A stretch of DNA of 63,968 bases, counting the filler, from Craspedostauros australis (lineage: Eukaryota), in the NCBI GenBank assembly GCA_030167865.1. It is 5 parts of 5 records of this genome, joined end to end, with 100 filler letters (N's around TTAATTAATTAA, not from the genome) between each part and the next. Parts side by side here need not be neighbours in the genome. Positions count along the whole stretch, not along the records: positions 22,598 to 31,949 come from JALAGF010005590.1; 4 more parts are not named here. The stretch is one strand, 5' to 3'. A program made the position numbers and the translations under genes. Below are positions 19,976-62,155 of this stretch, in pieces; the first letter of the stretch is position 1, and every line of letters starts with the position of its first letter. A model generated the notes under the pieces. It ran no database searches and had not been told where the DNA came from. It was given only the letters and a program-made list of their open reading frames with translations.

Positions 19976-20930
19976 AGAACGAGCACTAACATTGAACACA
20001 AGAGCGAGCGCGCATGGTATTGGCGAGGAAAGTTGTGAAATGGAGCGAAAGTGTGGCGATCCTGTTTGAATTTGTGAGAGGATGTCGATGATGTGTGATG
20101 TGTTTTGTGTTTTGTGTCGTGTGTGTTGTGACGAGCAAAATGTGAGATCATGCACCACATGCTAACGTGTATTTAACGCGTACCAAACGAACGACATCTT
20201 CTGCACACAAACCGAATCGCTGCTGCAAGATCATCACATTTTCACCACAGAAAACAACTTTTCATCAATCGCCAGCCGTGACATGACGACCGCAGAGCGA
20301 TGACGCCCCTGACGGATCATGAGCGCAGATGTCCCACAAGGGTCAACGTGATAGCATTACCAAAAGCAGGTGTCAACTGTCTCCGGTGCCGCCAGCAAAA
20401 CCAGCCTCGCCTTCAGCGCTTCTCTGTTTGGACTCCCCTCTCTGTCGGGAAATGAATCGAACAGCTTCACTCCCTGTCTCAAACTTCCGTCAGCATGGAA
20501 AAGAAATTGGTATCAAGAGCAAGAGCGTCAGGGTGCGAGCAAGGGTGCGAGCAAGGGTGCGAGCAAGGGTGTGTGAAAGTCTGCGAGAGTGTGTGAGAAC
20601 CAGAGAGTGCGAAACCTCTTCCTCCTTGACGTGCGATCCATCCGTTTGGGCAATCAAGAAACAGCCAGCAATCGCGCGATCGGGCGAGTAATCATCTATC
20701 ACTGCAATCGATTGTGGCTGTCGATGACGGTGATCGATTACGGTAATCGATCGCACAGATGGCTGAGCGATCGTAGAGGCGATCATAGTATCGCACTGCG
20801 ATCATTGAAGCGATCAAGCCAAGCTGCAGACAGAACATCGCATTTCGAGGTTTGGTGTCAGATCAAAAGCTCATAAAATCAACCAACGGTGAATCGAAAC
20901 ACCACATCGTCAACCAAGGCAAGCAGCATC

Positions 20931-22497
20931 ATGGCAGAAGAACAAACCAAACAAAACGACAACACTATGGCCGACACTGTCGTCAAGACAGATCCAGATG
21001 CAAGCCCGGCCCTCCGCCCCGCACCAGTCCAGGCATCGCTGGATGACATTGGGAGCATCGCAGAGATGCCGCCTGCCGGATGCGGCATCATGGCCCGATA
21101 TCCAGTCCTCTCCGTCCTTATCTTTGCCAGCGTGGGCATCGGAACTGGGGTCGGTCTGAGCTACTGGGAGCCAGACGATCCATGTGACAAGGAGGTCACC
21201 CTCAAGTGGCTTGGCCTGATCGGTGACATGTTCATCAGAGCCCTCAAGGCCATCGTCTTGCCGCTGGTCTTCATCAACGTCGTCATCTCCGTCGTCGACA
21301 TGATGAGCCTCGGCCGCGCAAGTTCCATCGGATGGACGACGATCGGTCTCTACCTTGTCACCACCATCGTCGCCTCCATCGTCGGCATCGTCTCCATCGT
21401 TTCCTTCGATGGTCTCTTCAACGAAGACAGCTTCGACGACGACGACGATGCCCGCATGTCCTTCGGATGCAACAAGGAAGGCTTCTTCATCACAGAACAG
21501 AGCGATGGTTCACTCATGTGCATGGAAGGATCTGGCGACAACATCGACTTCCTCGTCGATGACATCTCCGCCACCTTCGTGACCAAGAGCAGCGGTGCCC
21601 GTGACGACATCAGTCTGTCGGATACCATCTACGACGGTATCTTCACCAAGCTCATCACCTCCAACATCTTCACTTCCTTCAACTCGGCGAACTTCGCAGC
21701 CGTCGTGGTTTTCGCCATCGCCTTTGGCTCTGCCTTGGGCCAGGTCCTCAACGATCGTGTTGATGGCAACACCGCTCTCAGCCACATCATCAAGCTCTTC
21801 AAGGAGCTAGATGGTGTCTTCCTCAAGCTCATCAACTGGGTCATCATGCTGACGCCATTCGCTGTCTTCTCGCTCATCGTGCGTGCCATCGGCAATCAAG
21901 ATGACCTCGCCAAGGCATTCGAGAACGTGGGGTACCTCGTGGTCGCCACCATGGTCGCAATGCTCTTCCATTTCTGCATCGTCCATGTCGGTCTCCTTGC
22001 CCTCATCCGCAAGAAGAATCCGTTCACCTACCTCCAGAAGCTCGTCCCCGCGCAGACCATGGCCTTCGCGTGCGCAAGCTCCGCCGCCACCATCCCCATG
22101 ACGCTCCGCTGCGTCCAAAGCACAGGAGAAGTCCCAGATTCCATCGGCCGCTTCGTCGTTCCGCTGGGCGCCACCATCAACATGGATGGTGGCGCTATCT
22201 ACTTCTCATGCGCGTGCATCTGGCTGGCTGTCCTCAACGGAGTCGACATCGATGAATCTGCCTACGTCCTGCTTGTCATCATCGCTACTATCGGTTCGGC
22301 CGGAACGGCACCGGTGCCATCCGCATCGCTGGTTCTCATCATCACCGCATACAACACCGTGTTCAACGCATCCGGCACCCCGGACGGCTTCGAGTACATC
22401 CTGGCCATCGACTGGTTCATGGACCGCCTCCGTACTGTCCTCAATGTCACCGGTGACGGTGTGGTGACAGGCTTGGTTTCTGCCTTGGCCCCCTTGG
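20931..22497 (+). CDS. Dicarboxylate/amino acid:cation symporter (DAACS/SLC1/GltP family), 3' truncated by a gap
   Basis: GDMFIRALKAIVLPLV, AFACASSAATIP, VPLGATINMDG, SAGTAPVP and IDWFMDRLRTVLNVTGD signatures. Confidence 0.95.
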
Positions 22498-22541
22498 NNN
22501 NNNNNNNNNNNNNNNNNNNNNNNNNNNNNNNNNNNNNNNNN

Positions 22542-22553
22542 TTAATTAATTAA
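22542..22553. other. Artificial contig linker TTAATTAATTAA within N runs
   Basis: The same 12-mer (stops in all six frames) is centred in N blocks at four places in the window. Confidence 0.95.
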
Positions 22554-22597
22554 NNNNNNNNNNNNNNNNNNNNNNNNNNNNNNNNNNNNNNNNNNNN

Positions 22598-23756: not shown

Positions 23757-25059
23757 TCTGTCGAAAGATACGCGGAACCGAAGTTGAAGCCAAGAGATCG
23801 TGCACATCGCCCACATGGTGCATGGTCCGACCTCAGCTCTCTCGTCCATCACCTGAACTTCTCTGCGTAACGCATGTGTCTGACTAGTTCGGGTGGCAGA
23901 ATTGAAGCAGCAAAGACCACACTCATCATCTTGGAGGTGTTTGTACCAACAGTTGTACGAGTAGAGGGAAGTGTGCTTGAACAAGTATAGTAGTGATCGG
24001 AGACCATGGTGTGCGTGGTGTGCTGTGTTGTGGTGAGCGAGTCTGTCGGAATGATTTTGTGACATGTGTCGATCCCAAATTGTGAGCGGATGCAACCATG
24101 ACTTACTCCCCATGGGACTCAGTCCTGAACAACAAAAACAACAATCGGCCAGTTCACGCCATTTGATTTGTTCAGACCACATCATCATCATCAGTGCGCG
24201 GAGAATGTGCACATCCCTCAACGCATGGTCCATCTTGGGACCATGTCCCATGTGCCAAGACATTGCATTGGCAACGCTTCAGCAAAGGCATCGCTCATTC
24301 AGCTAATTCGATCATGGAGCGTTATTCTTATCAGACTCAATTCCAATTTGATCCAACGCATCTGTTTGACTATCACTTCCATCTTGCTGAGTACACACAC
24401 TCTCTCCTCGCAATTACACAGTGCATCGCACTGATCAGACCATCGGCTCTCACACCTCAGTCAACTAATGATAAAACCAAAGTTATTGCATACTCAGAGT
24501 GTCTCTTGGTTGTTGTTGGCAATGTCTCCTTCTTCCACGATCCTCTATTTCTTGGATTTCTGTTGTTGGTTGTTGATGTGGAGGTGGTACGTACCATACA
24601 AGCGAAAAAGCACAGCTCATGGCGCACGTGATCGCGGGGTCAGATCTCTTTCCCACTATCTCTCTTCAGAAACCTTCATGTTGTGGTCTTTGGATGGATG
24701 CTTTGCAGGGTGGTGTTGGTTGTGCCTGATGTCGCCAGGACCTGCGAGTCATTGCTTTCCTGAATGGTCGTACTAGTCGAAGACGAGAATTTTCGGCGAG
24801 GTCGCAGAAGAGAACCCTGTTGCCATTCTTCCTTTGTGTTGTTCGCGCACATTTTCGTGATGGATGAGAACGGAAGGATCCAAGCCAGAACCAGGGGCGC
24901 GACCAGCAGAAGAGGCAAACACAAGCAAACACACACCACACAACCCCATACTCGAGCACATCAACAACAGACATCGAATTGCCACTCATATTCATCACAC
25001 AGTGCATGGTACTCATAATAATACAAGCCATTGAAGACACCACCATCGATATCTCTGCC

Positions 25060-26820
25060 ATGGGTAACTCGAGCTACACTCTTCCTCGACGGCCAATCCA
25101 ACGCCAATCGTCCAACGTCAATCGTCCAGCAACTATCGACCATCCTCTCAAAATGCCGAATGTCACGGACCGACAACTCCTTGATGCTGCCATAGCAGGT
25201 GACTTGTTGGTGTTGAAAGAATGGAAGAAGCAGAACAAGACGCAGCATGAAGAAGTTGATGTCAACAAGGCTACAGACAGGATTGGTTGGACTCCCCTGC
25301 ATTGCGCATGCATGAACGGCCACCTGGAGTGTGTGAAGTATCTCATCAAATCATGCGAGGCAAACATCAACTGTGATGACAACGATGGAAACACTCCCCT
25401 TCATTACGCATGCTTCAACGGCTACCTGGAGTGTGCGAAGCACCTCATCGAATCATGTGAGGCAAACTACAACTGCAAAGGCAACGATGGTTCCACTCCC
25501 CTTCATGTGGCATGTCGCAATGGCAAGCTGGAGTGTGTGAAGTACCTCATCGAATCATGTGAGGCAAACATCAACAGCAAAAACAACAATGGTGACACTC
25601 CCCTCCATGATGCATGCCACAGCAGCAAGCTGGAATGTGTGAAGTATCTCATTTTATCATGCGAGGCGGACATCAACAGCAAAAACAACTATGGCATTAC
25701 TCCCCTTCATGTGGCATGCATGAATGGCCACCTGGAGTGTGTGAAGTACCTCATCGAATCATGTGAGGCGGACATCAACTTCAAAAACAACGATGGAAAC
25801 ACTCCCCTTCATTACGCATGCCACAACAGCCACCTGGAGTGTGTGAAGTACCTCATTGAATCAGGTGGGGCGAGCATCAACTGCAACAACAACAATGGTT
25901 CCACTCTCCTTCATGTGGCATGCATGAACGGCCACCTGGAGTGTGTGAAGTACCTCACCGAATCATGTGAGGTAAACATCAACTGCGAAGACAACGATGG
26001 CGACACTCCCCTTCATCTCGCATGCATGAACGGCCGCCTGGGGTGTGTGAAGTACCTCATCGAATCATGTGAGGCGAATGCCAACTGCAAAAGCAACTAT
26101 GGTGACACTCCCCTTCATCGGGCATGCATCAACGGCCACCTGGAGTGTATCAAGTACCTCATCGAATCATGTGAGGCGAACATTAACTGCAAAAACAACG
26201 ATGGTGACACTCCCCTTCATGATGCATGCATGAACGGCGGGCTGGAATGTGTGCAGTATCTCGTTACATCATGTGAGGCCGACTGCAACTGCAAAGGCTT
26301 CAATGGTTCCACTCCCCTTCATGTGGCATGCATGAATGGCCACCTGGAGTGTGTGAAGTACCTCATTGAATCAGGTGCGGCGAACATCAACTGCAACAAC
26401 AACAATGATTCCTCTCCCCTTCATGATGCATGCATGAACGGCAAGCTGGGATGTGTGAAGTACCTCATCGAATCATGTGAGGTAAACATCAACTGCGAAG
26501 ACAACAATGGTGGCACTCCCCTTCACGATGCATGCCACAACGGCCACCTGGAGTGTGTGAAGTATCTCATCGAATCATGCGAGGCGAGCATCAACTGCGA
26601 CGACAACGATGGAAACACTCCCCTTCATGTGACATGCTTCCGTGGCAACCTGGAGTGTGTGAAGTACCTCATCGAATCATGTGGAGCGAACATCAACTGC
26701 AACAATAACAATGGTGAAACTCCCCTGTGGAAGGCATGCCACAACGGCCAACGGGAGTGCATCGAGTCCCTCATTAGAGGACTTTCGCCTTCAGTCCACT
26801 CACAACTGCAACAACGCTGA
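25060..26820 (+). CDS. Ankyrin repeat protein with 15 near-identical 34-aa repeats
   Basis: xGxTPLHxACxxGxLECVKYLIESCEANINCxxN repeated with an exact 102-bp period. Probable ATG at 25060 (MGNSS) or 25153. Confidence 0.92.
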   Translation: MGNSSYTLPRRPIQRQSSNVNRPATIDHPLKMPNVTDRQLLDAAIAGDLLVLKEWKKQNKTQHEEVDVNKATDRIGWTPLHCACMNGHLECVKYLIKSCEANINCDDNDGNTPLHYACFNGYLECAKHLIESCEANYNCKGNDGSTPLHVACRNGKLECVKYLIESCEANINSKNNNGDTPLHDACHSSKLECVKYLILSCEADINSKNNYGITPLHVACMNGHLECVKYLIESCEADINFKNNDGNTPLHYACHNSHLECVKYLIESGGASINCNNNNGSTLLHVACMNGHLECVKYLTESCEVNINCEDNDGDTPLHLACMNGRLGCVKYLIESCEANANCKSNYGDTPLHRACINGHLECIKYLIESCEANINCKNNDGDTPLHDACMNGGLECVQYLVTSCEADCNCKGFNGSTPLHVACMNGHLECVKYLIESGAANINCNNNNDSSPLHDACMNGKLGCVKYLIESCEVNINCEDNNGGTPLHDACHNGHLECVKYLIESCEASINCDDNDGNTPLHVTCFRGNLECVKYLIESCGANINCNNNNGETPLWKACHNGQRECIESLIRGLSPSVHSQLQQR

Positions 26821-27341
26821 CAACAAAACGAGCAAGAGAATGAACAGCCACAAGAACAGTTGGGACAGCAGTCGAAGCGGAAGAAGCAAGAATGAGCACA
26901 AGCACAATCGCCATAAGAGAACCAACATCAGCACTGGAGAAGACCGGCTGAGATCTTTCTAAACCGAGAACAAGGCCGACACCATCTTTTTGTGGACAGG
27001 GTGATGAACAGCAACCAATCAAGGCAAACGCTGAAGCCCTCAAGATCACCATCCAATCCATTGAGACGGTAATCGACAAAGGAATCCAACATCAGAACTC
27101 GAAGGATGGCACCCAAGACGGCATGGCCCTCATGTAAGTAACTGTCCCTCTTCCCAACCTTCAACCAAAGCACGTCCGACATGTCCTCCAATGTATCTAC
27201 ACAGGCAAGATATCCTTCAACAACAACACTCATGACGGCACTGATGATGATGGCGCAAACCAGCATCTCTTCATGCAACACAACTCTGTTCGATGATGGT
27301 GATGGCAATGGTGACCACTCCAAAAGCGCTACATCCCTTCA

Positions 27342-29596
27342 TTGGTACCACCGACACAAACACCAACCATCGGACAAGATAATGAGTCATCGACATCCAA
27401 GAGGAACTGTGGGAAGGCTCGCCAGTTGCTCCGCACCTTTACCCACTCGTCGTACGATTATGAGTATTACTATGGAACCTTCCATGAGTACGATCGACTC
27501 TGGGAGTTGTCACAGCAAAGCGTCCAGCCTGATAGGTACTCTGTTCAAACCTTTGTGCGGTCATGCGGTCATGACGATCGAAGTTGCTGGAAGAGGACGG
27601 TGTCAGACGGATAGCGGAGAAGCAAACGGAGACCAAGCAACCGCAACCGCAGCAGGCCGATACAAAATCGAAGGCGAGCAAGCCCACTGGCGTCGCCAAA
27701 GAAGCCAGAGCAGCCGCAAAATCAGGTGGTTGTGCGAGCGTCAGCACAGATACACCAAGCAGGGCCAATAGAAGTACCGCAAAAGATGCGAAAGCTTCAG
27801 CTGTGAAACGATCACGTGCGAAGAGTCTGGACATGCTCAACATGCAAACTCATGAGATGTCATTCAGCTCCCTTGATCCCAGCCAGTTCAACGACAACGA
27901 ATCGATACAGGCGCCAAACACCCCAGGTGGACTCAGCTTCGCCACAGCCCCAGCACTCGGCGCAACCTGCGAACGGAGCAGCCAAGACAAGACGAAGCTT
28001 GCCCAGAGTCGGAGATACAGGCCAAGGCCAAGAACGAATTCCAACGGAACGACCAGCAGCGACAAATGGAGGAGCAAGAGTTTGGAATTCTCGAAGGATG
28101 GACACAACATGCCAGGCACATCAGACACATCAGACACATCAGACACACCAGGCGCGATGAGTGCGGCCAGCACCCCTGCTCTATCTCGCATTGCGACAAC
28201 GGAGACGTCACGCAGTGAGAGCCTGGAGCCACTGTCCAATCTGCCAAGTCTCCACGACAGCGTCGACGTTGCGACAAGTGCTGCTGCAACGAATGGTGGG
28301 AGAAGCTTGGCGGTCCCTGTCACGCCTGGAGGTTGGAGCGCGGCATCTACACCAGTCCCCTTCAGCTGCACACATGAAGAGAGACAACAGTCTTCGTCGT
28401 TGAACAAGCGCAGGTCAACGTTGGAAAGTATCCTCAAGGCCAAACGATCATCATTACGTGAAGTGTCGTCGACCAATCCTGCCAAATCGAAGCAGCGGCC
28501 ATCTCTCGAATCCCGATCATCGCAATTGGCCGATCTTGCCTTGACCAAAGCATCCGCAAAGGCACCATCATCGTCGCCATCATCAACACAGTCCAAATCC
28601 AAACTCAATCTTCAACAGTTCGAACGCGAACACGAACACAGAGGTGTCTCGGCCGCACCCCAAGCCTCATCCAGTCCTGGAGCCTTGAGTTTGGGAATCG
28701 AGTTGCAATCGAGCAAGAAGGACCGGGTGGCTCCCTCTTGCAACAGATCCGCACGCAGTTCGTTGCACCCAAGCGAAGACTCAAAGCAACGATGTTCACG
28801 CGGACGAAGCGCGGGTGTTCTGCGTGATGAGAAGCGATCAAGGAAAGGATCTCCAGGGTGCTTGGCAATGGGCCCCGACGTCACCACTCCAGCAAAACAA
28901 GAGACGTGTCATCACCATTGGTATTACCTTCGATATCACCGTCGCCACGGCATCGGCGGAGAAGCGCACAGCACACCAGTGGCAAGCCGCACGCGACATC
29001 GCCAAGATCAAAGAGTGCGGAGCGTTCGCCATCATTGTGTCATCGTCGCGACAGAGAAATCCACACGTCTTTCTCTGGAAGAAGCCGCCGCTCGCCATCG
29101 GCGCGGAGTCATCGAAGCCCGTCCGATCACGGCCATAGAAGAACTGCGCAAGTATCGATGGACTCATCGCCATCATCGCGGAGACAAGGAACATCTGGCA
29201 GTGCGGATGATGTGAACGCAGCCTCGAGTTCACGCGAAACCAACTCAAATGTGCACTCCACTGGTACTGGTTTGCAATGGCGCAACGGCTCACCTTCGTG
29301 AAAGCATGACTGAGGAAGTTCGCGAAGACCAAATCAACGTGACCGTCGCCAATCGACACCACGTGGCAAAGATCAGCGAAGGAAGTCCTCCGATGAACGA
29401 TCACCATCGGCGCGACAACGAAACAGATCAAGAGGATATCGAAATTACAGCGTCGAACGGCACAGTAATGAGTGAGATGACAATGGACGACATGGCAAAC
29501 AACAGCATGGCAACAAACGTTCGTCATCACGCGGGCCCTTCAATCAAATCGCCGTGGACGAAGCAGATCGTCGACACGCGATGCTGTCTACCATGA
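27342..29596 (+). pseudogene. Ser/Arg-rich low-complexity protein split over several frames
   Basis: Overlapping same-strand ORFs 27342-27614, 27584-29215, 28858-29301 and 29249-29596 have continuous composition, with no intron signals noticed at the junctions. Confidence 0.5.
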
Positions 29597-31993
29597 GAAG
29601 CTGTCCGGCACAAAACCACTGCAACTCATATCAAAGAAAGCAGTCAGGAACAAGAGCGCGTCTCAGTGCCGCCATCCCTTGATGAATGGTACCAAAACTC
29701 CCACCTTGTGATGCATCACGACATGATGGGATGGAATGAGATGGATGGGCCGCTCCGTACTCGTATCATACTCATAGAGGTGTGGTAGACTCACGTCGCT
29801 GTAATTTAATACACCTACGAATAGACTGCAAATATCTATGTATGGTTGGAACAGTACCGCATGCACTATATCTGCTTGTGCAATAGAACGCTGTGATGAA
29901 GTCACCGGATGTTTCAAGAGATTGAAGGGCTGGATACTGCTGCCACGCTGCCTCCACCTTGTGTACGACGAGTCTGGTCCGCTCTCTGCGGTACATACGC
30001 ACACAGGGATGTTGCTGATGTCATTTATGAGCATATTGGACGTCCGTGGTTCCATCCACGCTCCGCCATCAACATCATTGTTGGTTCATTGCGCAGACAA
30101 TGGACGCAAGGCAGCAGCATGTTCACAAGCTGTGCGGTCGTTGCAGTGCGGTCGTCACCGTGCCACCGAATTCACACATAAAGCACTCTCCACTCCAAGT
30201 CGCACACTGCCAAGCCGATTCAAAGCTACAGTGCCGATGCCAGCCGATCCAAGTTTGTGGAAGAGACGATCTACGAAGAGCACATGGCGAACAAGGCAGA
30301 GGGAAATGATGGGAAGCCGCGAGGGGCATGGTTGTTGCACGGTTCCATCGACCGTCCCGTATCGCCCTATTGTCCTCATCTCACCAGGAGTTGCACTCTC
30401 GTCATTGTGCCAAAACTGCAGCTGAGACCCTCACCAAGTCCCAGGAGGAGTGATCACTCGCCGTTGAAGCAACAAATGCCAGGGTCACCATCCATTCCAA
30501 TCTTCGAAGCAAGCAATGCCAGCGTGGCGGAAGGGCAAGAATTGACGAGCCAGCGCAGTCCAAGCATCCAGAGAGCTTGACGAGCACAAGAAAAAAACAA
30601 CCAACCAACCAACAAGCAACCCCATGCAGAGTGCGAGTGCCGTATTGCTGATCATGGTTGACACAGAGATCCATTTTGGTACAAGAAGCACACGGTCAGC
30701 GATCCATGGCCCATGGATACCGTATCCCCACATGTCCTCCTTCGTGGTGCTCCCAACTTCGTTCGTGAGGTGGATGTTCCTGTCGATCACGGTTGAGCAT
30801 CGATGCTCTGGAAGTCACGAGCCAAGATGGCGGCGCTCGTGCCTCAGGATAGAACGAGCATGGTATTGTATGTTCGTAGTCCATGCAGCAGGGACAGTGG
30901 AGGCGGCACGGTATCGATCTGCCTGTTGATTGCTGAAGGTGCCAACCCATCCCAATACGCAATGGGGTGTTGGTTGGATGTTGAGGACTCTTGTTGCCTG
31001 TGCGGATGGTGATGGTTGCAATGCGGTGGGATGGCAACCAGCCAAATCCAAATGGGATGGGTCGCAACCAACAAACACAACCAACCAACGCAGTCACATC
31101 GGTGGCTTCATGGTTGTTCGAGGCATTGGTTCGCGCCTCAAGTTGGTGCTTGCAATGGCAGGTGGACGAGGGACAGTGGTCTTGCAGATGCCACGATAAC
31201 ACAAGCAAGCGTGGGTCATGGTGTACATGGTGGTGGTGGCGATGACAGCTCCCTCTCTCTCTCTGTCTCACTGTCTCTCTGTGTTTCTGTCTCCAGAGAC
31301 TTCCACGTCATTTGCTTCGGATTGAAGTGGTGTTGATTGTGACTGAAGTTGGGTTGTTGGAGGCAGCCCCAAACCACAACACTGTTCAGACCGATGGAAA
31401 CACTCAACGACCATTTCGAACCATTGGCGTGTCACCATCAATGATCTTTCGCATTCGTTGTGCTTCGACAGATGTCCAAACAATCGTTGATCTTCGATGA
31501 TCTTACTCATAGTCGAATCAGTCGAAGATTCTCGTTTTCCACAATGCCACACAACAGAACCCTGTTGTTGTCAGAATCCTCTGTTGTCTTCCTTCTTGGT
31601 GTTGTTCATGTACTAGCTGCACTCAATGTAAAACGGTGTCGCGATAGCACTAGTTGTAGAGTTTTGGCCCCTTGTTGCCACTGGTTTGCTTGCTTTTGGG
31701 AGAAACGGCGATTGTATATTTAGAGCTATTTCGTGTTTACTCTCGCTGATCCGTCGTCTACGTCACAGGGAACGGATTCCACGTCATGAAAAACGAGTCA
31801 CAACAGAGGAAGAGACATCGTGTGACTCTTCCTCTGCAAGACAACGTGATGACCGTGTGCAGCAACAACAGAATGTGCCATGCCAGGACAGCCAACATGA
31901 GTCCGCGTCAACCAATCTCACAATGGAAACCAGCAACATCCAATCGTCTNNNNNNNNNNNNNNNNNNNNNNNNNNNNNNNNNNNNNNNNNNNN

Positions 31994-32005
31994 TTAATTA
32001 ATTAA
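31994..32005. other. Artificial contig linker TTAATTAATTAA
   Basis: Same linker flanked by N runs. Confidence 0.95.
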
Positions 32006-33006
32006 NNNNNNNNNNNNNNNNNNNNNNNNNNNNNNNNNNNNNNNNNNNNTGTGCAACTTTTGATTGTTGTAACTAGATGAATCCTGCTGATGGAATGCAA
32101 CAAGCCAACTGGCAAGAGAGTTGGAACAACATCCGCAACCCCCCTTCGAAGAGAGGGGAACATGCTGGCTCTGCGGCTGTCGAATGTGTGGAATCGCATG
32201 GAGAGGCGAAGGATCCGTGGACCAGAATGAAAAAAGCCAAAAAACAACAAGATGCGGTCCGTGCACAACACGATAATGAGCAAAAAAGCCACAAGTTGTT
32301 TTGGAAAATACGCAAGAATTTTTCGCCATTTGGTGGCCCGCATCCCTTTTCGACTTTCGTTTTGCTTCGTCGCAATTTGAAAAAAACGCCGTTTTCCCTT
32401 GCTCTCCCCAGCAGAGAGAGAGAGGGAACATCAAAGAGTTCTCTCTGAACCCGTCTGAGAGTGGTTCCAGTGACACCAGTTGCATGGCTCTGGAGGAACA
32501 ACAGAACTCACGAACCACCCACGAGCACGAGCACGAGCACGAGCACGGGCTACCGCACACACTCTGCCATACTCGCGTGGGGACTCTGTTCGGCTCCGCA
32601 GTGACGCTCCGCTGTACATGCACGCTGATACTCGTGGCCACCGGAACAGGTATCAGCGCGACAGTGAGCAGTTCCCTTCCTCCCCAAGGTCTGCTCCTCG
32701 GGCTCTGGGTGCAGCTCGTCCATCTTCGACGCTTCAGCCTGCATCCCTGCAGTTCGGTCAGTCGAGCCATTGAGCCATTGTGCCATTGATCGACCAAGGC
32801 TCTCCATCGTCCAGTCGCTCTTCCGCTTTCTCAAGATCGTAATCTCCACCACCGTCGTCGTTGCCACTCTCGGTGGGATCCAAGCACCATTCGGAGGCTG
32901 GTAGAGGCGCCACACGTCAACCGCAAGGCCAAGCGTGCAAACAGGAAAGGAAGACAACGAGAACAGGAAGACCAGCAGCAGCAGCAACAACAGCAGCAGT
33001 GCCATC

Positions 33007-34707
33007 ATGACACGTCCGGGGGGTATCGAACGAGTTCTGTACAATCTCCACCGTCGCGTGTGCAACTTCAGCTTGCGCCACACCTCCAACCACACGAGAA
33101 GATGGCTGGAGCACCTTTGGCTGGTGCTGGCGATCTGCGGCTTCGGGGGTCTCATCCTGCTGCACCTATGCTTCGTGTACAGACCCAACGTCAACAACGT
33201 ATCGACCCAGTGTCTCAGGTCCATTCCAGGCTTCATTGAGGATGCGGACGTCACGCACATCGTCCTGCTGCATCAAAGCGCCCTCACGGCCCCAGCCACA
33301 AGCGACAACACCAGCAACACGGCTGGTACCATGTGTGCCACGAGTCGTGTCATTGTCCATGAACCCATGGATGCCTCCAGCTCCATCCACTTCCAGAGCA
33401 TCAAGCAATGGCAATCGAAGGAACGATACCTTGTCGTGGACGAATCGACCGCGACTACATCAGATGGTCCAAGGCAGGGTGATGACGCCCATGACGAATC
33501 TATCGGATCCGACGGCAGCAGCGACAGCGACACGTCAGACAGCAACAGTAGCAATGGCGACATCGATGGCGCGTGCGGCATCACCAACGAGGCTGGTGTG
33601 ATACAGGTTGCGGGCAGTATCCAGTACTCATTCTCGGACAACCGCGCGTACCTGCAGCTGTCTCACGATGACAACATGCAGCAGTATCTCAAGAGACAGT
33701 ACGCCATCATATCGCCAAGGGACATGAACTGCTTTGGCGAACCCTTCTTGCAGACCATTCTGTGGAACGTCGTGGGAACGGACACTGTCATCATCAACTG
33801 GTTGCTTGCCGTCGTCAACAGACCACCGCAGTTACACAGACGTCTCCCTACCAATACCGAAGGGGAACGCACCACAATTCCGGCTGCTGCTGGTCCACAA
33901 GCGCCAACATTGGAGGCGGCGACAAACGGGGAAGAAGGAAAGGAGGAAGTGCAAGAGGTGGAAGCGACGAAGCAGACAACGCCGACATGGCAGAGCCACG
34001 TGAACAAAGATGGGCCGTTTGTCTACCACTCGCGCAGCCACAAAATATACAACGCGTTCATCTGGGAAAGGGATTACTTGAACGTCATGCAACGGGTTCT
34101 GCTGCTCATCCAGACGGCATTTCTCTTCGTCACAACGACGACGATGGTCTCGTTCACCCTCCGGGAAACGCAAGAGCGCATGCTCGAGTTCACCCAGGAG
34201 CTCAACCGCCGCGTCCAAGGGCGCGAACCTGTCCGGAAGCTGGTGTCATCGCACCTCATGCAGAACCTCATCTTCTGCCCCATCATGGTGGGCATGCTGT
34301 TCTTCCTCATCGAGTTCTACGACGGCGACAAGTTCCTGGCCTTCCTGGTCATGACCATGATCTGGATAGCAGAGGTCTTCTCCGTCATCAGCCTGCGCAG
34401 CATCCAGGGCATCACGTTCTTCCCCCGCATCTTCTTCCTCCTCTTCTGCCTCTTCCACGTCTACTACTTCGCCTACCCGCTGGGATTCGGGTACACCGCT
34501 ATGGGCACGGTCAGCTGCTTCATCCTGCACTCCATGCTCTTCTTCTGGCACAGGTACGAGCTGCCCGCGGTCGCGCTCGGTTGGGTGGACGCGCAACGGC
34601 CAAGGATGATGACATCGTCGTCCGACAATTCGCAACTGGTGGAAAGCAATCGCATCCATGTTCACGCCCACGCACCCACCCTCTCCAACGTCCAGGAGCA
34701 GAGATGA
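33007..34707 (+). CDS. Membralin (TMEM259-like) ER membrane protein
   Basis: LILLHLCFV TM, YSFS..RAYLQL, CFGEPF, GTDTVIIN, VSFTLRETQERM, FFPRIFFL and HSMLFFWHRYELPA, all typical of membralin. Confidence 0.88.
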   Translation: MTRPGGIERVLYNLHRRVCNFSLRHTSNHTRRWLEHLWLVLAICGFGGLILLHLCFVYRPNVNNVSTQCLRSIPGFIEDADVTHIVLLHQSALTAPATSDNTSNTAGTMCATSRVIVHEPMDASSSIHFQSIKQWQSKERYLVVDESTATTSDGPRQGDDAHDESIGSDGSSDSDTSDSNSSNGDIDGACGITNEAGVIQVAGSIQYSFSDNRAYLQLSHDDNMQQYLKRQYAIISPRDMNCFGEPFLQTILWNVVGTDTVIINWLLAVVNRPPQLHRRLPTNTEGERTTIPAAAGPQAPTLEAATNGEEGKEEVQEVEATKQTTPTWQSHVNKDGPFVYHSRSHKIYNAFIWERDYLNVMQRVLLLIQTAFLFVTTTTMVSFTLRETQERMLEFTQELNRRVQGREPVRKLVSSHLMQNLIFCPIMVGMLFFLIEFYDGDKFLAFLVMTMIWIAEVFSVISLRSIQGITFFPRIFFLLFCLFHVYYFAYPLGFGYTAMGTVSCFILHSMLFFWHRYELPAVALGWVDAQRPRMMTSSSDNSQLVESNRIHVHAHAPTLSNVQEQR

Positions 34708-35425: not shown

Positions 35426-38400
35426 ATGGCATTCCCAAGCTCCAAGGACAAGAAGGCTGCGTTCGATGGATTTGGCGGCGGCGATCAATGGGGTGCCTTC
35501 GGATCGAACGCGGCCGAAACCCCAACGACCAGCAACTTCAGCGGAGGCGGCGGAGATGGGTTTGGTTCTTTCCCCAGCAGCTTCTCCGCTGCAGACGGTG
35601 GCGGCAGTGGCGACAGCGGAGGCTTCTTCGGAAGCGGCGGTGCCAACGCCTCATCCTTCAAGCTCCCGTCCCCGCCTAAGCCCAAGAAGGTCTATGACAA
35701 AACCCCGCTCAAGGATCCGCCTCAGCATCATCTCTCCACTGGCGCATCGTTCCTTCAGGAGCCGAGGAAGCTGCTTGGATACCCCTGCCTTCCGGCACCA
35801 TCCGTCAACCCGCTCAACGGCAACATCATCGGCTGCAGGAGGCTCCCGAACGGCGAATTCGTCGTGATGGAAACCGACCCGCGCAGGGGCACGCAGGTCA
35901 TGAGCTCGCCGGTGCTCACGGCCGAACTGCAACGCAAGATAGCAGCCAGCTACAACGTCACGGCCACCTCCGTCAGCGCCGTTCTCAAATGCACCGTCGG
36001 CACGCACAGATCGAGCGGTCACGTGCGTCCGCGCGTGGCGGCGCTGATCGATCTCATGGTGCTAGAGAACAACGAGGTCGTGCGGGTCATCGCGATATGG
36101 CAATGGGGGTACGGTGCCTCGCAACCCATCATCTTGCAATCCATCTTGAGCCCACCATCGGGCATAGACTTCGTGTACAACCCGGAGAGCCTGCTGCTGG
36201 CCGACAGTTGCGTCTTTGTGTCGGGCGCATCCGAGAAGGGCCCCTACATCTTCATCTGCAAACCCACCGTCAGGGAGAAGTGGTCCGCCAACTTGGTCGG
36301 CAAGGAATCGGTTCGCATTGCGGACATGGCAGTCACATCCTCTTTCAAGCAATCGCGACCCTATCTGGCCATTGCCTTGACGGACGGATCGATGAGCGTC
36401 TGGTCGTACCAGGCAGCCATGAGCCTCACCTCCAAGTCCAAGGAGGCGTTGCGGCGTTTGCTGTACCCATTGTGCCGTCTGGACACAGTCAAGTCCTTGT
36501 CCCGCGCGAAGGTCACGCAGTTGTCCCTTTCCGACAGTCAGCATGAAGCGGGTAAGTACGATACGAGCACAGCCGATTACTGCAAGAGTTGCCCACTCCA
36601 GCTGATCCATGCATCGCCGCTTGTGTTGGGGGTGCTCAATGTGGCATCTGTCTATTTCTGCACAAGGCTTGTGTCGAACATGCAGAATCCGCATTCTCAC
36701 TCACGTACCAAACGGCCTCTTTTCTGTCTTCCCCAACTCCATCCCACATCGAAAATCAACAAACCATGGTGTGCTTCCGTATGGCACTTCCAATTACTCA
36801 TCCATCGCCTCATCCATTGCTACATCGTCATCCATCTCGCTTCCCTGTCATAAAGCAGACCAATCAAAGGAGCTCGGCCATTGCACATCAGTGATGTGGA
36901 TGCCATGTAAAACATCCCAGATGTCCATGCAGGTCTTGGCGGCAAGCTTCCAGTGCGGGGTTATGCTGTATCATATTGCCTTGCCATCGACGTTGGATTC
37001 CAAGGGCAACCCGGTGCCACCAACCCCTCCAACATCGAGCACGCAGCTGTCGTCAACCACTTCCCTCAAACCATTCGGAGTTGCTCGTTGGCCACGAATG
37101 TATCATTCCGCATCGTCGGCTTGGCTCAATCTTGGGCCCCACGAAAGCATCTGCGTTGGCATTCTGCTCAAGGGAGTTGACTCAAAGGTGGACTACGCTC
37201 GCATCCTTGCGGTCAAGTGCCAAATCCCAATTTACAACTCAAGCTCCGGCAAGGACCGCAAATCGTCCACCGACAAAAAAACATCGATCCGCATCCTCTC
37301 CAGCAACTTCCAATGGCAATCGCGCTCGGCAACGACACCATGGGGCATCCTGTCGAACCACAACCTCCCAGGCATCGTGTACTACTCCGAAAAGGCAATC
37401 CATGTGATGAAGGTCGACGACAAGCTCCATGGCAGGTACGGTCACATCATCACCTCTCAACCACCAGGCCTCGCATCCGATGGCACGGTTCACTTGACCG
37501 ACGCAAAGGCAGACAGGCAGGGGATCTTGCACGTGTACTCCACGATGCAATGCGACCGACGCAAGTTGTCAGATTCCAAGCTTGTTTCTTGGTCCACACC
37601 GACCTTGCGACATTGGCTGGTTCGGACGCTGGCAAGCGATTGCAAAGCGGCGGTCAAACAATCATCGGCGACGTCAGCATCGGACAAGTCCAGCAACCAA
37701 GACTCGAATGACGATGGCATTGTGTACGGAGGAACGTCGTCCGAAATCGTTTGCGAAATTGCCAGCGCCAGCGACATGGATGGCCTGATGCCTTCTCGGA
37801 TCATTCGAAGCAGCGATGGTTCCAACCTTGCCGTGGCAATGAGGAGCACCGGTCTTGGCGCGTCGGATTGCATCAAGATCGCATTCTTCCAACAAGAAGA
37901 CAATGGCGGCATGAAACTGTCAGATGTTGTGGATGGGCGTGATGTGTCCTTCCTTCCCACCGACAAGGCCGCTGGCGCAATCGCGTTGATATTGGGCGTG
38001 AATGGTGGGACCGTCCGAGAATTCAAAAAGGAAACCGTGGAGTCCAAAGAAGTCTGGAAGGAAGCGGCGGCATTCCGCCCCATCGTCGGTGCCATGAAGG
38101 ATGACCACATTGACTGCCGCCGTTTGCAGCTCGTCACGCGCCAATCGGACGAGATCAGGCTCCTCGCGGCAGGAACCAGAACTTCTGATGATCGAGGTTG
38201 TTTGATCGTGGGTAGTGCGACGGCTCCGACCGGCAAGGGAGATAGCAAATGGTCCAACACCCTCCCTAGCTTCGAAGAGGATCCAATCTTTTGGTTCGAG
38301 GATGGCGAAGAGATCTTCAACATCTTACCGCTCCCGAACGAAGGATCAATTCAGGGCGGATACGCTGTCGCTACCAACACAAGAGTGCTGGTCCTCGATC

Positions 38401-41400
38401 CCAACATGAACCTTGTCGGAAGCTCGGCTTGTGGAGCACCTGCCAGATCGGTCGCCCCGGTGGGATCCTTTGCGGTTGCATTCTGTGGCGCAGATTTCAA
38501 GATTCGTTACGTGTGCGGCCTCAAGGCAAGCTTCGGGACGGGAGTTCTGGCGACGCTCCCAGGCCCGTTGTCAGGGTACTGCCCGTACGTGTTGCTCGCC
38601 GTCCGTCCTGATCGTTTCATCTACGGTCGCGTCCACGTGGCATCTCACCTTCGCGAGAAGGATCAATCCAAACCCAGTTCACTGCCAGAGGCCATCACGA
38701 GACCAGCGTTGCTCCTGGAACCGCTGTTGGCCAACGTCATCAGCACAGGCGGCCCGCAGACCAGTACCATGCCGCTTCTCAGGACCGTAGTTGAGAGGTT
38801 CGGACGCAAGATCACATCGCTCTCTCACAGCGACGGTGGCGGTATCGGCGATCATGGCACGGGCATCACTCCACGCGTGTTCGAACTCCTGTCATTCTAC
38901 AACCTCGACGAAGCATCATCGTGGCTGTTGACGGGCACGGTGTCATTCCATCGAGCAGCCAATAGCCGGATCCTGCCACCGTGGATCCCAATGTCTTCCA
39001 AATCCATAGCAGCGAAGACCGCAGACACGAAACTGCACCTCCTCGCTCACGGTGATCAGTACTTCACGGAGTACGTCAAATCACCTGATCAGAACATGTC
39101 CTCCACACTGCCCCGGCACAGCGATCCGTCAGCATTTATGTGCAACGAGCTGGCCAACAAATCGTTGTTTGCTGGCAATGTGAGCGATGCCTTGAAGCTT
39201 TTGGACATGGTGGGAACAGAATCCGCCGACTCCAGGCTTCTGCAGCTGGCGCTAACGCTTCAGATGGACCCATCCAAGGATCCCACCCAACTCTTGGAGG
39301 CGCTATGCCACACGGATAGCCAACTTGGAAAAGCGGTGTCGTCGTCGGCGACTGGGGCGCTGGCCGCGCTGTCCTTGCAGCTCAAGTCCAACACCATCAA
39401 AGCGGGAAAACCGGCATCGGCAGACTTTACGGATCGATGGATGAAGCAGATGGCACCATCACTTCAGAGAGGACGCAAGATACGTCGCATGCGACCCAAG
39501 ATCATTGGGGAGTCCGCATTCCTGAAGATCCACGGTGGTTCGAGCAGCAGAACCAACTCGAAACTGTTCGTATCGGAAGCGATCGATGCGAAGCACATCT
39601 GGTACGTCCACTGGCATTGCAAGTCATTTTCATGTACGAACACTTGTGCTTATGGCGGCTTGGTTGGTTTCGCGCATTGCACTCGCAGCTTCAGAGCGAA
39701 TCATGATCCTTTGAAGTCATGATGGCACATCACGATGTACTACGCTGACACTTTGTCTGCTTGCTGTATGTATGCCACACGTGGTCCTCGACGTCATCTG
39801 TTAATGTGTTTATGCTTACATATGCAGGAACGAAGGACCCAACAAGGAAAAGGAGCACATCCTGACTTTGGACAGCATCCAAGAGTGGTTTGGACGGACC
39901 AGACCGGTCATTTTAGGCAAGGAGGGCGCGGAGAACGCGGTAGGAACCGGCGCCACGACGCTCGCAGACATCCTCAACAAGGCCGATGATGATTCATTCG
40001 GAGGAGATGACGATGATTACTCCAAGGATGGCTGGGTCGAAGGTGTGGGGCAAGGTCACGAAGATAAGGACAAGCTGTGCGCGTATTACAGAATCTCCGA
40101 AGGTGATGACGACGAAACACCATGGAAGGAGGAAGGTTTTGCGGATTTGACCAAGTTCGAGAACAAGGCGGTCCTTGTTGGCGTGTCCGATTCTGTGGAG
40201 CTCGAGCAGTCCACATCCAGCGTGGACGAAGGAGAGAGCGGCAAGGTGAAGGCTCTGTACGACATTGTCTTCAAGGAGAGTGGCGTTGGCCGTGCTGCTG
40301 GTTTTGCCATACCAGCGAGCCGAGGAAAGAGTTTGGACATTGGTATCATGCACGGGCCCGACCATGATTCCCGTCAAAAGTGCACCGTAGAATTCTGGTT
40401 CTGGATTCCCCAGGAATTGAAGCATGACATAGTACTCGCTCGGAGGACGTTTGGGTCATCGGCTGGGGATCTTGACAAGGTGTGTCTCGCCAACGAGAAG
40501 GATTCCACTTTGTGGGAGCTCATCTTGTCAAAATCTGGAGAGCTCGAGTTCCGCACAATTTCTGGTGACAAAGCAAAGACAAAGCCGAAGATCAGCGAAG
40601 ATGATAGTGACAACCATGACGACGACGACGACGACGATGATGGTCCCAGCAACAAGAGCAAGAGCACTGCCTTGTTCGGCCGTTGGAATCATGCATGTAT
40701 CATCATCAAGCAACTCACCGCCACAACAGCCACCACTGGTCTGCTGATGAAGGGCGAAAGCTGCTTCTCCAAGGAACTCAGCTTTGCTCCACCCGACATG
40801 GAAGCCGACGAATTCGCAGGTGCCTCAGCTTTCGATGGGCCATTGACGAAGTCGTACCTCGTGTTCGGGCTGAACCACCCCCCAGCGTTCAGAATGACAG
40901 AAATTCGCGCATGGGCGATGGAGCGTGTAGCGGACGACATCCGGACGTTCATGACAGAGTATTTGGAAAGCGCCGAGATCAAGCGCAAGTTCCGCGTGAA
41001 GATCAAGAAGAAGGGCGGTGGCTTGGGAAAGCTGGCAGCACCATCTTCCGGTGGTTTGGCACCTCCTGGTCAACCCCGTGGAACCCTCATGCCACCAGGC
41101 GGTCTCAAACCACCATCCGATACAACGAGCAAGGTCAGCCGTAAGAATCTGCTTGCGCCACCAGGCAAGGGCAAACTCGAAGCTCCCAAAGAACCAAGCT
41201 TCGACCTTCCAGCCGTGCGTGATTCCTCTGAGACGAAGGAGACCGATCCCGCAAGCGGATTCGCGAGCGACGTGTTTGAATCCTTTGGGGCAAACGCAGC
41301 AGAGGATGCTGCGCCGATTTCATTTGGGTCAGACTTTGGCGCCACTCCGACGGCAGCGGTTGCTGGCTCGGATGGCTTTGGGACGCCGGATGTGGCATCA

Positions 41401-43265
41401 CCCACCACCGCAGAAGAGGTTGAGCAGTTCGATTCGGCTGAGCCCGAAGATATGGAGGTTGAAATCTCGCCGCTTTGGGACAGTGCGATCCCATTGTCGG
41501 AGCAAGTTCGTTCATCAGCAGCGGCCGCGCTCATTCGAGGTCCGCCGGCCACGAGGCATTTTGGAGGCAATCGTGGAGGCCTTCCGGATTATCGAGAATT
41601 GGAAAGGTATGTTTGGTCTTGGCTGCCTTGCATCTATCTATGTGCCCGATTTCAATAAGATGCTGTGCAATGTGATTTTGTGCGGTTTTATGCTCTGCGA
41701 TGTGATACCATGTGATGGTATGCGATGTGATGCATGACCTCTCTATTTCCACACACGGTAGACTTGCTCTTGTAATGGTTTGGATTTGGTGGCTTGGAGC
41801 GCTCGTTCATGGCACACCAAAGAGGTCGATGCAAGCGATTTGTTTGTGCACAAATCATCTACTCTGCTGCATTCACCGCGATTGACTTGTCGACTCACAA
41901 AGTGTTTCTCCACTCATATGTGCAACACCTTCGTAACGCTACACACCTTGGTATCTTTCGCTCTCCACGGCCAACAGATTTGGAGTCGGCGCTATTTCCA
42001 TCTGCGGGTCTGAGAAGACCATCGTTTGGAGAGACGACCAAGTTCCACCAGGACTCACATACCCGATCGGTGCAAGCGGTGCCGTTGTGAGTGATCAGAT
42101 GGACGAGGACGGCAGCGAGTTCCTTTGCTGCTTCCAGGCGAAAGAGAAGAGAATGGTCGTCTTTGAGCTGTCAACGAGGACGGCGGTGGTTGAGCTGCAG
42201 ATGACGACGAAGCTGAACTACTGGCGTTTCCTCCCACCCGAGGCTGGCGAAGACACCTTGTGTTTCATGTTGATTACGCCAGTCGGTGGCTTCCATTGGA
42301 TGCCGTTGGATGATTCGCCCCGCCCAAGGCAGGTGTGGAAGCGTGGCGGGGAGTTGCAGGGCAAGAAGATCGTCTGCTATGAGGAGGGTGGGACGAATGG
42401 TCAGGACGGACCCGATATGCTTTCGAAGGTTGGAATGCTGCTGATGACGAACGCGGCAGCTGGCGGACGTTTGGAGTCATGGTTGGTTCCAGTGTGCGGT
42501 GATTCCCAGGCCATCTGTGCCTCCGAGTAAGTCCAATTTGGTTGGTGGTCAAACTCGCGAAGCTGTGCCAACGTTTGTGCCTTGCTCTACGAATGAATGG
42601 TGTGTGGAAATGTCCTTGATCGTTTTGATTCTTCGCGTTGTCTTCTCACACTGTGTGGACCCGCCTGTGGACACGTTGATGTACTCTTGGTCACCGTCTT
42701 CGGTCGTTGCCACACTTCGACTCTGACTTCATTTCGTTTTATTCGTTCCATTTGATTTTGATTGCACCCGTTCAGTGATGTGATGGGAGCATGCCTGTGC
42801 TGCCCGCCTGGCGTTGGATACGAGGCGTGGATGCCGCTATTGCTGTTCGTTGTTGAATCGGAGAGCGATCTGGTGGTGTGCGTGTCAGCGGTCACAGAGG
42901 GCGCAGACATCTCCATCGCACTCACGGAGGTGATGACGGACGCATTGATCGAGCTTGCGCCGTACAAGGACTTCGACTTCACCCCGCCGACGTTGTCGAT
43001 GGGAACATGGCCGGAGGTTCTGTGTTGCTCGTTGGGCAGCACGATCGTCATCATCGTGCGCCGCAAGGGTCTAGTGGTGGCATACGAGCTGGCAGACACG
43101 GGTCTGGAGCTGATCGCAGAAGAAAATGTCGGGCACTACGTGGTGGATGCCGTCATGAGGTATTCTGCCGTGGAGGGTGGTGCAGAGATCGTTCTGCTGA
43201 TGTCTGATTCTGAGAATCCGCGTGACGGCAGAGTGGGTACATTCTGCTTCCGATCCGCAGTCTAA
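35426..43265 (+). CDS. Large unknown protein, 5 exons (35426-36551, 36859-39601, 39828-41606, 41978-42526, 42776-43265), ~2228 aa, with beta-propeller-like regions and a ConA/LamG-like domain
   Basis: Four GT-AG introns give phase-consistent joins (6687 nt total). TVEFWFW...WNHACII...MTEIRAW is LamG-like. Confidence 0.8.
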
Positions 43266-60250: not shown

Positions 60251-60294
60251 NNNNNNNNNNNNNNNNNNNNNNNNNNNNNNNNNNNNNNNNNNNN

Positions 60295-60306
60295 TTAATT
60301 AATTAA
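60295..60306. other. Artificial contig linker TTAATTAATTAA
   Basis: Same linker flanked by N runs. Confidence 0.95.
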
Positions 60307-60350
60307 NNNNNNNNNNNNNNNNNNNNNNNNNNNNNNNNNNNNNNNNNNNN

Positions 60351-62055: not shown

Positions 62056-62099
62056 NNNNNNNNNNNNNNNNNNNNNNNNNNNNNNNNNNNNNNNNNNNN

Positions 62100-62111
62100 T
62101 TAATTAATTAA
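62100..62111. other. Artificial contig linker TTAATTAATTAA
   Basis: Same linker flanked by N runs. Confidence 0.95.
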
Positions 62112-62155
62112 NNNNNNNNNNNNNNNNNNNNNNNNNNNNNNNNNNNNNNNNNNNN

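Follow-up and report, generated by a model that had tools for sequence, protein, structure and literature searches.

Repeat proteins in which a near-constant framework carries a few changing surface residues are known from nature and from design. In the excerpted text of a study of fungal NOD-like receptors (NLRs), high internal conservation is defined as 85% or higher identity between repeats across 100 or more amino acids (aa), and the ankyrin repeats of these receptors follow the same evolutionary pattern as the diatom array that we describe here (Dyrka et al. 2014, PMC4986451). DARPins (designed ankyrin repeat proteins) are, in the excerpt of PMC8683736, randomized at defined surface positions. 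Among diatoms themselves, the available part of PMC9894196 describes dAnk1 to dAnk3 as cytosolic ankyrin-repeat proteins, with dAnk2 and dAnk3 common, and possibly ubiquitous, in the group. Here, we analyze an array of 102-bp ankyrin units in a stretch of Craspedostauros australis DNA (assembly GCA_030167865.1; 63,968 nucleotides [nt], filler included; hereafter, the window). The explanation that we favor, and regard as probable, is an intronless nuclear diatom gene encoding a continuous ankyrin solenoid, a binding adaptor or scaffold that is one of a multicopy family.

Architecture of the array and its protein

The array comprises 15 units of 102 bp that run in register without an indel from window position 25282 to 26811, much as a first-pass annotation of this DNA had claimed; 14 of the units are well conserved, and the 15th is degenerate. 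Tandem Repeats Finder placed the repeat at 25291 to 26759 (period, 102; 14.4 copies; 79% matches; 0% indels), and a second repeat search returned 14 copies at a spacing of exactly 102 nt. Cut in frame from 25282, the sequence reads as 15 units of 34 aa. Pairwise identity among units 1 to 14 ranges from 69 to 90% for nucleotides (mean, 80.5%) and from 56 to 82% for amino acids (mean, 70%), and the degenerate unit 15 (26710 to 26811) is 51 to 61% identical to the others at the nucleotide level. Of 102 nt, units 7 and 12 have 10 unlike, and the pair of units 5 and 11 has 11. A higher-order repeat of five units, suggested by the resemblance of units 6 and 7 to units 11 and 12, was rejected globally, as other pairs at that shift were not elevated.

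The framework had been called nearly invariant, a description that fits some of its blocks better than others. The GCATGC block is exact in 13 of the 15 units, and the block ACTCCCCTTCAT is exact in 9 and within one mismatch in 14. For the 30-mer CTGGAG...GAATCA the wording was overstated, with exact copies in 3 of 15 units and copies within two mismatches in 12.

A single uninterrupted open reading frame (ORF) (24979 to 26820) spans all units, and the gene is intronless. An alternative in-frame ATG at 25060, upstream of the Met at 25153, would add 31 aa. We took 25153 as the start because all four related transcript fragments begin with MPNVT aligned to this Met and because one contig of run X1 (a sequencing run of short contigs, the sole run listed, holding 0.07 of the sampled words) has nontriplet indels between 25040 and 25122. 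An N-myristoylation site had been entertained for the MGNSS start at 25060 and was dropped, as the family fragments start at the second Met.

Pfam models Ank, Ank_2, Ank_3, Ank_4, and Ank_5 all match the protein, with E values of 1e-87 to 1e-159; Ank scores 479.7 bits over 15 stretches (cutoff, 21.1), and Ank_2 scores 519.5 bits (E = 1.5e-159). In the Pfam scan of the protein, nothing besides ankyrin models rose above the cutoff (no NOD, TIR, kinase, or death domain), and no hydrophobic leader, signal, or membrane segment is visible in the protein sequence. The protein is most likely soluble and probably cytosolic. Cys makes up 9.9% of its residues.

An AlphaFold2 (AF2) model from the single sequence (mean predicted local distance difference test score, 73.5; predicted template modeling score, 0.57) shows 16 pairs of helices that recur every 34 residues, with the helix-turn-helix and hairpin of an ankyrin solenoid. 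The layout is an N-terminal capping repeat, 14 ankyrin repeats with 34 aa each, and a C-terminal capping repeat, sixteen repeats altogether, and near-identical internal repeats between two caps are also the layout of DARPins. Copies of 300 nt that start in the N-terminal module and run into units 1 and 2 are 62 to 64% identical in nucleotides and in register. The residue in excess of the usual 33 appears as a gap at column 24/25, after helix 2, in the alignment to DARPins, and deletions inside background ankyrin units (the set is defined below) occur most often at columns 25/26. Among solved structures, the nearest chains are those of ankyrin-1, NOMPC, and DARPins: the best full-length matches in the PDB are 7tw3_G (E = 1e-146) and 5vkq_A (E = 1e-110), from ankyrin and NOMPC, and DARPin chains are among the best PDB sequence matches.

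Uneven variation among the units

Variation is concentrated in a few of the 34 columns of the unit. Numbered in the frame that starts at 25282, the columns of highest entropy are 3, 8, 14, 11, 32, 1, and 33, and the residues that the first-pass annotation had listed for each variable position are correct. Parsimony on a maximum-likelihood (ML) tree of the units gave 103.5 nonsynonymous and 33.5 synonymous changes, and the nonsynonymous changes were not uniform over the columns (chi-square = 110; df = 33; P = 2.8e-10). Applied to the units of this array, the per-site comparison that had been proposed as a check, with uniformity among the refuting outcomes, returned uneven variation. In the AF2 model, helix 1 spans columns 5 to 11 and helix 2 spans columns 15 to 24. 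Columns 8 and 11 therefore lie on the inner helix, column 3 lies just before helix 1 at the end of the hairpin, and column 14 occupies the turn that leads into helix 2.

It had also been proposed that the variable sites largely coincide with the positions randomized in DARPins. The library positions are reportedly 2, 3, 5, 13, 14, and 33 (Binz et al. 2003). By HMMER alignment to DARPin chains, these six positions fall on columns 34, 1, 3, 11, 12, and 32. Four of them (columns 1, 3, 11, and 32) are among the seven hottest columns, and to that extent the proposal stands; it does not extend to columns 12 and 34, which are almost fixed as Asn. Nor is the variation confined to the six positions, since the hot columns 8, 14, and 33 align with L10, H16, and D1, which belong to the DARPin framework.

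Pooled Nei-Gojobori estimates over 14 units gave 0.32 synonymous substitutions per synonymous site (dS) and 0.20 nonsynonymous substitutions per nonsynonymous site (dN). By column set, dN was 0.47 in the six a priori DARPin columns, 0.73 in the seven hottest columns, and 0.10 in the rest. Counts on the tree, set against the global synonymous rate, gave a ratio omega of about 0.4 to 0.6 at framework columns versus 2.1 to 2.2 in the hot sets, of 1.49 for the a priori six columns (Poisson P = 0.012), and of 2.3 to 2.7 for columns 3, 8, 11, and 14. Tree-free bounds put synonymous change at 20 to 35 changes over 20.7 sites (0.97 to 1.69 per site) and nonsynonymous change at a minimum of 3.29 per site in column 3, 3.90 in column 8, 2.33 in column 14, and 1.81 in column 11. 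By these bounds, nonsynonymous change at the four columns exceeds the synonymous rate. A fixed framework with variation at few columns is what the first-pass annotation had described, and on this point it was borne out; the excess of nonsynonymous over synonymous change at those columns also supports its reading.

We also compared codon models M1a and M2a, in our own implementation and on a fixed ML tree of the units. M2a was preferred (2*dlnL = 17.9; omega2 = 5.2 in 8% of sites) and pointed to positive selection at concave-face positions (P = 1.3e-4; columns 8, 11, 3, and 14), but the test compares paralogous units and is sensitive to tree error. The posteriors were 1.00 for column 8, 0.999 for column 11, 0.49 for column 3, and 0.31 for column 14, and the test was significant on eight of eight alternative trees. 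A test for recombination within units, akin to the pairwise homoplasy index (PHI), found no significant distance dependence (P = 0.06 to 0.18). Overall, these results are suggestive of diversification at three or four columns, and the nonsynonymous excess may reflect diversifying selection.

Relatives and genomic setting

We searched the 74 residues upstream of unit 1 against 1.84 billion representative proteins (E ≤ 1e-3). Eight proteins matched, four of them short fragments at 64 to 77% identity and four weak matches at 29 to 40%, namely P0241, whose tandem repeats are unrelated, and three proteins longer than 2,000 aa. All four fragments come from transcriptome MMETSP1442, the organism name of which is printed "Craspedostau...", and they share the N-terminal module and the repeat framework with the array. 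The six units that the fragments contain depart from the window consensus at 47 places, 22 of them in columns 3, 8, 11, 12, and 14, where the fragments have residues not found in the window array. As for P0241 (629 aa), it consists of about eleven near-identical 53-aa tandem repeats, matched the N-terminal query through 11 weak stretches (E = 7.6e-19), and is probably a translated DNA satellite unrelated to ankyrin.

Further copies are visible in X1. On positions 24700 to 27300, 872 X1 contigs align at 85 to 100% identity (79 at ≥99%, 212 at 95 to 99%, 338 at 90 to 95%, and 243 at <90%), 341 of which fit two places. Every listed X1 joint for which the letters between its two parts are given is, with those letters counted, a net multiple of 102 (e.g., 222-18, 830-14, and 725-11), which indicates that units of other copies match different array units in register. 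Coverage by related contigs extends into both flanks, from 24929 on the 5′ side and up to 27300 on the 3′ side, so that copies of the family share sequence past the stop codon. A single-copy gene had been named as an outcome that would speak against the first-pass reading; the MMETSP1442 fragments and the X1 contigs instead reveal a multicopy family. By these sequences, the gene belongs to a lineage-restricted, multicopy, transcribed family.

Among the matches listed, proteins outside the family reach at most 40 to 51% identity, some of them, such as P0003, also with 34-residue units. Several of the best outside matches join ankyrin arrays to NB-ARC (PF00931), and P0003 joins one to PF08477, presumably the Ras-of-complex GTPase model. 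In P0003, an unnamed protein of 719 aa that is 51% identical, a P-loop GTPase region (PF08477) comes after about ten 34-residue ankyrin units that closely resemble one another, and this protein is a closer analog of a repeat-plus-signaling receptor than the window gene. In a search among shorter proteins, only two family fragments were in the best 120 matches, because longer generic ankyrin matches rank higher. Metagenome contigs yielded four related loci at 29 to 34% identity, none a family member, and the protein database gave no self match for the ankyrin protein or for the malate synthase of the window. The gene flanks, compared by BLAST with the window, revealed no second copy there. A literature search on diatom ankyrin expansions returned general mentions, and no paper on this family turned up.

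The window also holds an intronless malate synthase gene, which is 77% identical to its best match, a transcript of Stauroneis constricta. As the named malate synthase matches, among the 120 listed, are nearly all from diatoms, we read the window DNA as diatom nuclear, and the host of the ankyrin gene would be a raphid pennate diatom. A second ankyrin gene, cut by the window start, has irregular, diverged repeats with 35 to 47% identity to the array units and lies outside the subfamily of the array. Directly downstream of the array gene is an ORF of 543 aa that is rich in Ser, Thr, and Ala, has no Pfam match, and contains a 9-bp tandem repeat (CAGACACAT, 4.3 copies) reading TSDTSDTSD. The 3′ end of a gene of the sodium:dicarboxylate symporter family enters an artificial linker. 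Coordinates are collected in Table 1.

Table 1. Features of the array gene and of the rest of the window (positions count along the window)
Feature	Position	Strand	Details
Upstream flank, probably 5′ untranslated region	24929..25152	+	X1 record 1: 24929-25159, 15 other letters, 19 gap letters
Most likely coding sequence	25153..26820	+	555 aa, ankyrin repeats only; stop TGA 26818-26820
N-terminal module, degenerate capping ankyrin repeat	25153..25281	+	43 aa (MPNVTDRQLLDAAIAGDLLVLKEWKKQNKT...); AF2 helices, residues 6-15 and 18-29
14 well-conserved ankyrin units	25282..26709	+	102 bp (34 aa) each; consensus DGSTPLHVACMNGHLECVKYLIESCEANINCKNN
Hot codons, columns 3, 8, 11, and 14	nt offsets 7-9, 22-24, 31-33, and 40-42 of each unit		
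Hot turn columns	columns 32, 33, and 1 of each unit		
Unit 15, degenerate C-terminal capping repeat, and short tail	26710..26817	+	tail NGETPLWKACHNGQRECIESLIRGLSPSVHSQLQQR; AF2 helices 524-530 and 534-543
Downstream flank	26821..27300	+	X1 record 8: 26922-27169, 30 other letters; all depth bins to 27300 nonzero
ORF directly downstream of the array gene	27584-29215	+	9-bp tandem repeat at 28113-28151
Second ankyrin gene	2-1030	+	
TPR_12/TPR_1 repeat protein	7517-9916	+	
Sodium:dicarboxylate symporter family gene	20889-22553	+	PF00375, E = 5e-86
Membralin-like protein	32935-34707	+	
Long ORFs without a Pfam match	36609-39722, 39868-41658, 54843-57293, 57955-60243		
Malate synthase	46500-48104	-	
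DUF1295 protein	49045-50109	-	
LRR_6 (RNI-like) protein	51564-53186	-	
Artificial joins	22498-22597, 31950-32049, 60251-60350, 62056-62155		

Explanations and known systems

Under the explanation that we favor, the array would have grown as whole 102-bp units were duplicated in tandem and in register, and from growth in this form we infer replication slippage or unequal crossing-over. The residues of the scaffold (TPLH, AC, G, and LECVKYLIESCEANINC) would be held by purifying selection, homogenization, or both, and a few inner-helix and hairpin side chains (columns 3, 8, and 11, plus 14 and the turn) would have been replaced repeatedly. Paralogs keep the N-terminal module and the framework and differ at the hot columns. 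The variable columns would set partner specificity, and paralogs would differ in their partners. Judging from the fold and from the general behavior of ankyrin repeats, the protein is most likely a protein-binding adaptor or scaffold that acts through its concave face.

Several results weigh against this explanation. We compared the array with a background of 212 unrelated ankyrin units (at most three deleted columns each, from 990 domain matches in the best 120 database matches). Columns 11, 8, 3, and 14 rank 1, 2, 6, and 8 of 34 by entropy in this background, and the column entropies of the array and the background are correlated (Spearman rho = 0.50; P = 0.003). As the hot columns rank so high there, the location of the hot spots is the generic ankyrin pattern and no special design, and position alone is uninformative. 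What distinguishes the array from ankyrins generally is the near-fixation of columns in helix 2 and the loop (columns 12, 15 to 20, and 23 to 26), which vary widely in ankyrins at large. No single column passes Bonferroni correction in the counting test (best P = 0.0023 versus 0.0015), and the signal of an omega above 1 is drawn from paralogous units of one gene. For 59% of informative site pairs, no one tree is compatible with both sites. The likelihood ratio statistic of the M2a test climbs to 28.7 to 53.6 on trees with shuffled tips, which indicates that tree error or recombination inflates it. Internal amino acid identity averages 70% and reaches 82% at most, short of the 85% threshold given for fungal NLRs in the excerpt of PMC4986451. 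The assembly is a draft, with 27 runs of N in the window, and the order of the units is that of the draft, as no X1 contig spans the array and 140 of its 1,650 31-mers recur. Finally, four identical artificial joins of the form N44-TTAATTAATTAA-N44 mark concatenated contigs, and order and orientation across them are no evidence of linkage. In each of the six frames, the TTAATTAATTAA 12-mer contains a stop.

The selection results could also arise in an ordinary scaffold under concerted evolution, in which old unit-specific contacts for one large partner, or for a fixed set of partners, are retained while gene conversion and recent duplications keep the framework alike, its synonymous sites included; the resulting low dS could mimic an omega above 1. 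We consider this possible, though on balance unlikely. The hot residues do form unit types that agree with the tree of the units (units 7 and 11, S-V-M-H; units 2 and 6, N-Y; units 4 and 10, D-D), the likelihood ratio statistic is lowest on the best tree and inflated by wrong ones, and both the incompatible site pairs and the placement of variation where ankyrins generally vary fit as well. However, a pooled dS of 0.32 is not near zero, synonymous variants are spread across 16 columns, and the PHI-like test gave no significant sign of conversion tracts shorter than a unit. Moreover, the paralog fragments bear yet further residues at the hot columns (W, K, E, R, L, N, S, and Q).

Alternatively, the family could be an expansion, in one diatom lineage, of free-standing ankyrin binders ("natural DARPins") that lack a signaling domain and whose concave face diversifies under selection as an intracellular recognition repertoire, which we hold to be improbable. 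If this were true, the targets of such proteins might be viral, bacterial, or parasite proteins, or the repertoire might lend combinatorial specificity to a process peculiar to the lineage (e.g., adhesion, gliding, or valve patterning). If the binding face does diversify, the family would represent, among stramenopiles, the principle of the fungal repeat receptors in the form of a stand-alone binder. It would then also put the design idea behind DARPins to a test in nature, with two variable positions more, one after TPLH and one before LEx.

The first-pass annotation had gone further, to an immune-like receptor family with arrays rebuilt by repeat shuffling; such shuffling would generate new specificities against pathogens or non-self. 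A multicopy family with a common framework and variable surface columns, signals of omega above 1, a lineage-restricted N-terminal module, and best database matches that pair ankyrin arrays with NB-ARC or, in P0003, with PF08477 are all compatible with such a role, as is the matching pattern of fungal NLR ankyrin repeats in the excerpt of PMC4986451. The protein itself does not look like a receptor: in Pfam it is ankyrin only, it lacks a nucleotide-binding, NOD, TIR, death, kinase, membrane, or signal part, and the ORF stops six codons past the frame of the last unit. Its internal identity is under the 85% criterion. Shuffling did not find support either, as the PHI-like test detected no recombination signal within units, and in-register X1 joints at net multiples of 102 are expected of any family of similar paralogous units. 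We therefore give the immune-like reading little credence.

We are similarly doubtful that the array is an assembly artifact, that is, a collapsed or chimeric short-read consensus of family members in which the order and combinations of units are partly unreal. The draft state of the assembly, with its N runs and linkers, the many near-identical units in the family, and an exact internal repeat of up to 56 nt, along with the recurrent 31-mers, would make such an error conceivable. Against it, no N occurs between 23408 and 31949, 51-mers recur at 12 positions only, the frame stays open through 15 units between a proper N-terminal cap and a proper C-terminal cap, and the 79 X1 contigs at ≥99% identity match the assembled sequence. 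The least probable reading, and in our view a very improbable one, is a silica-morphogenesis adaptor of the dAnk type, a cytosolic ankyrin protein that, like those of Thalassiosira pseudonana, would act at the silica deposition vesicle. The diatom host and a cytosol-type protein of ankyrin repeats only would suit it, given dAnk1 to dAnk3 as described in the available part of PMC9894196. However, the orthologs across diatoms that the reported commonness of dAnk2 and dAnk3 implies were not seen: among the matches listed, and with no direct comparison to dAnk sequences, no relative from outside one transcriptome exceeded 51% identity.

As it stands, the locus is a well-characterized example of an ankyrin array that expanded recently, from a diatom genome at the draft stage; it helps annotation and has no bearing on a long-standing question, and such arrays are hard to assemble, which is a warning. 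The pattern has solid statistics behind it, is of an already known type among repeat proteins, and is no new system. Its nearest likenesses differ from it in distinct ways. In Ectocarpus, the LRR-ROCO and NB-ARC-TPR candidate receptors (leucine-rich repeats and tetratricopeptide repeats, respectively) reportedly have one repeat per exon and are said to diversify by exon shuffling (Zambounis et al. 2012). Both are stramenopile families in which variable repeat arrays have been proposed as recognition molecules, but the diatom gene has no introns and no NB-ARC or ROC domain. The analogy with the LRR and TPR arrays of brown algae drawn in the first-pass annotation fails on this layout, as the array is one uninterrupted ORF.

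The membrane-binding domain of ankyrin-1/2 and NOMPC share with the diatom protein a long uninterrupted array, which in their case serves as a binding platform. Unlike theirs, in which individually diverged repeats are followed by other domains, the repeats here are far more alike, and nothing follows them. The dAnk2 and dAnk3 proteins are set apart by their descriptions alone, in the available part of PMC9894196, as widespread among diatoms, whereas the present family is seen in one lineage only. DARPins (6mol_A and 5leb_A) share the build, with an N-terminal cap, self-compatible near-consensus internal repeats, a C-terminal cap, and diversity at few surface positions. The diatom protein differs from them in being natural, in its 34-residue units, in its high Cys content, and in the hot columns 8, 14, and 33 that sit at DARPin framework positions.

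Fungal NLRs show the same evolutionary pattern. The diatom protein differs from them in its host, its 34-aa unit, and its lower internal identity, and it has neither a NACHT or NB-ARC domain nor an N-terminal effector domain, with only 43 aa before unit 1. Like the ANK, TPR, and WD domains of fungal NLRs, as presented in the excerpt of PMC4986451, it combines a near-identical framework with positions in the inner helix and the hairpin that vary or may be under positive selection, in a multicopy family for which, as in the fungi, unit duplication with concerted evolution may be supposed.

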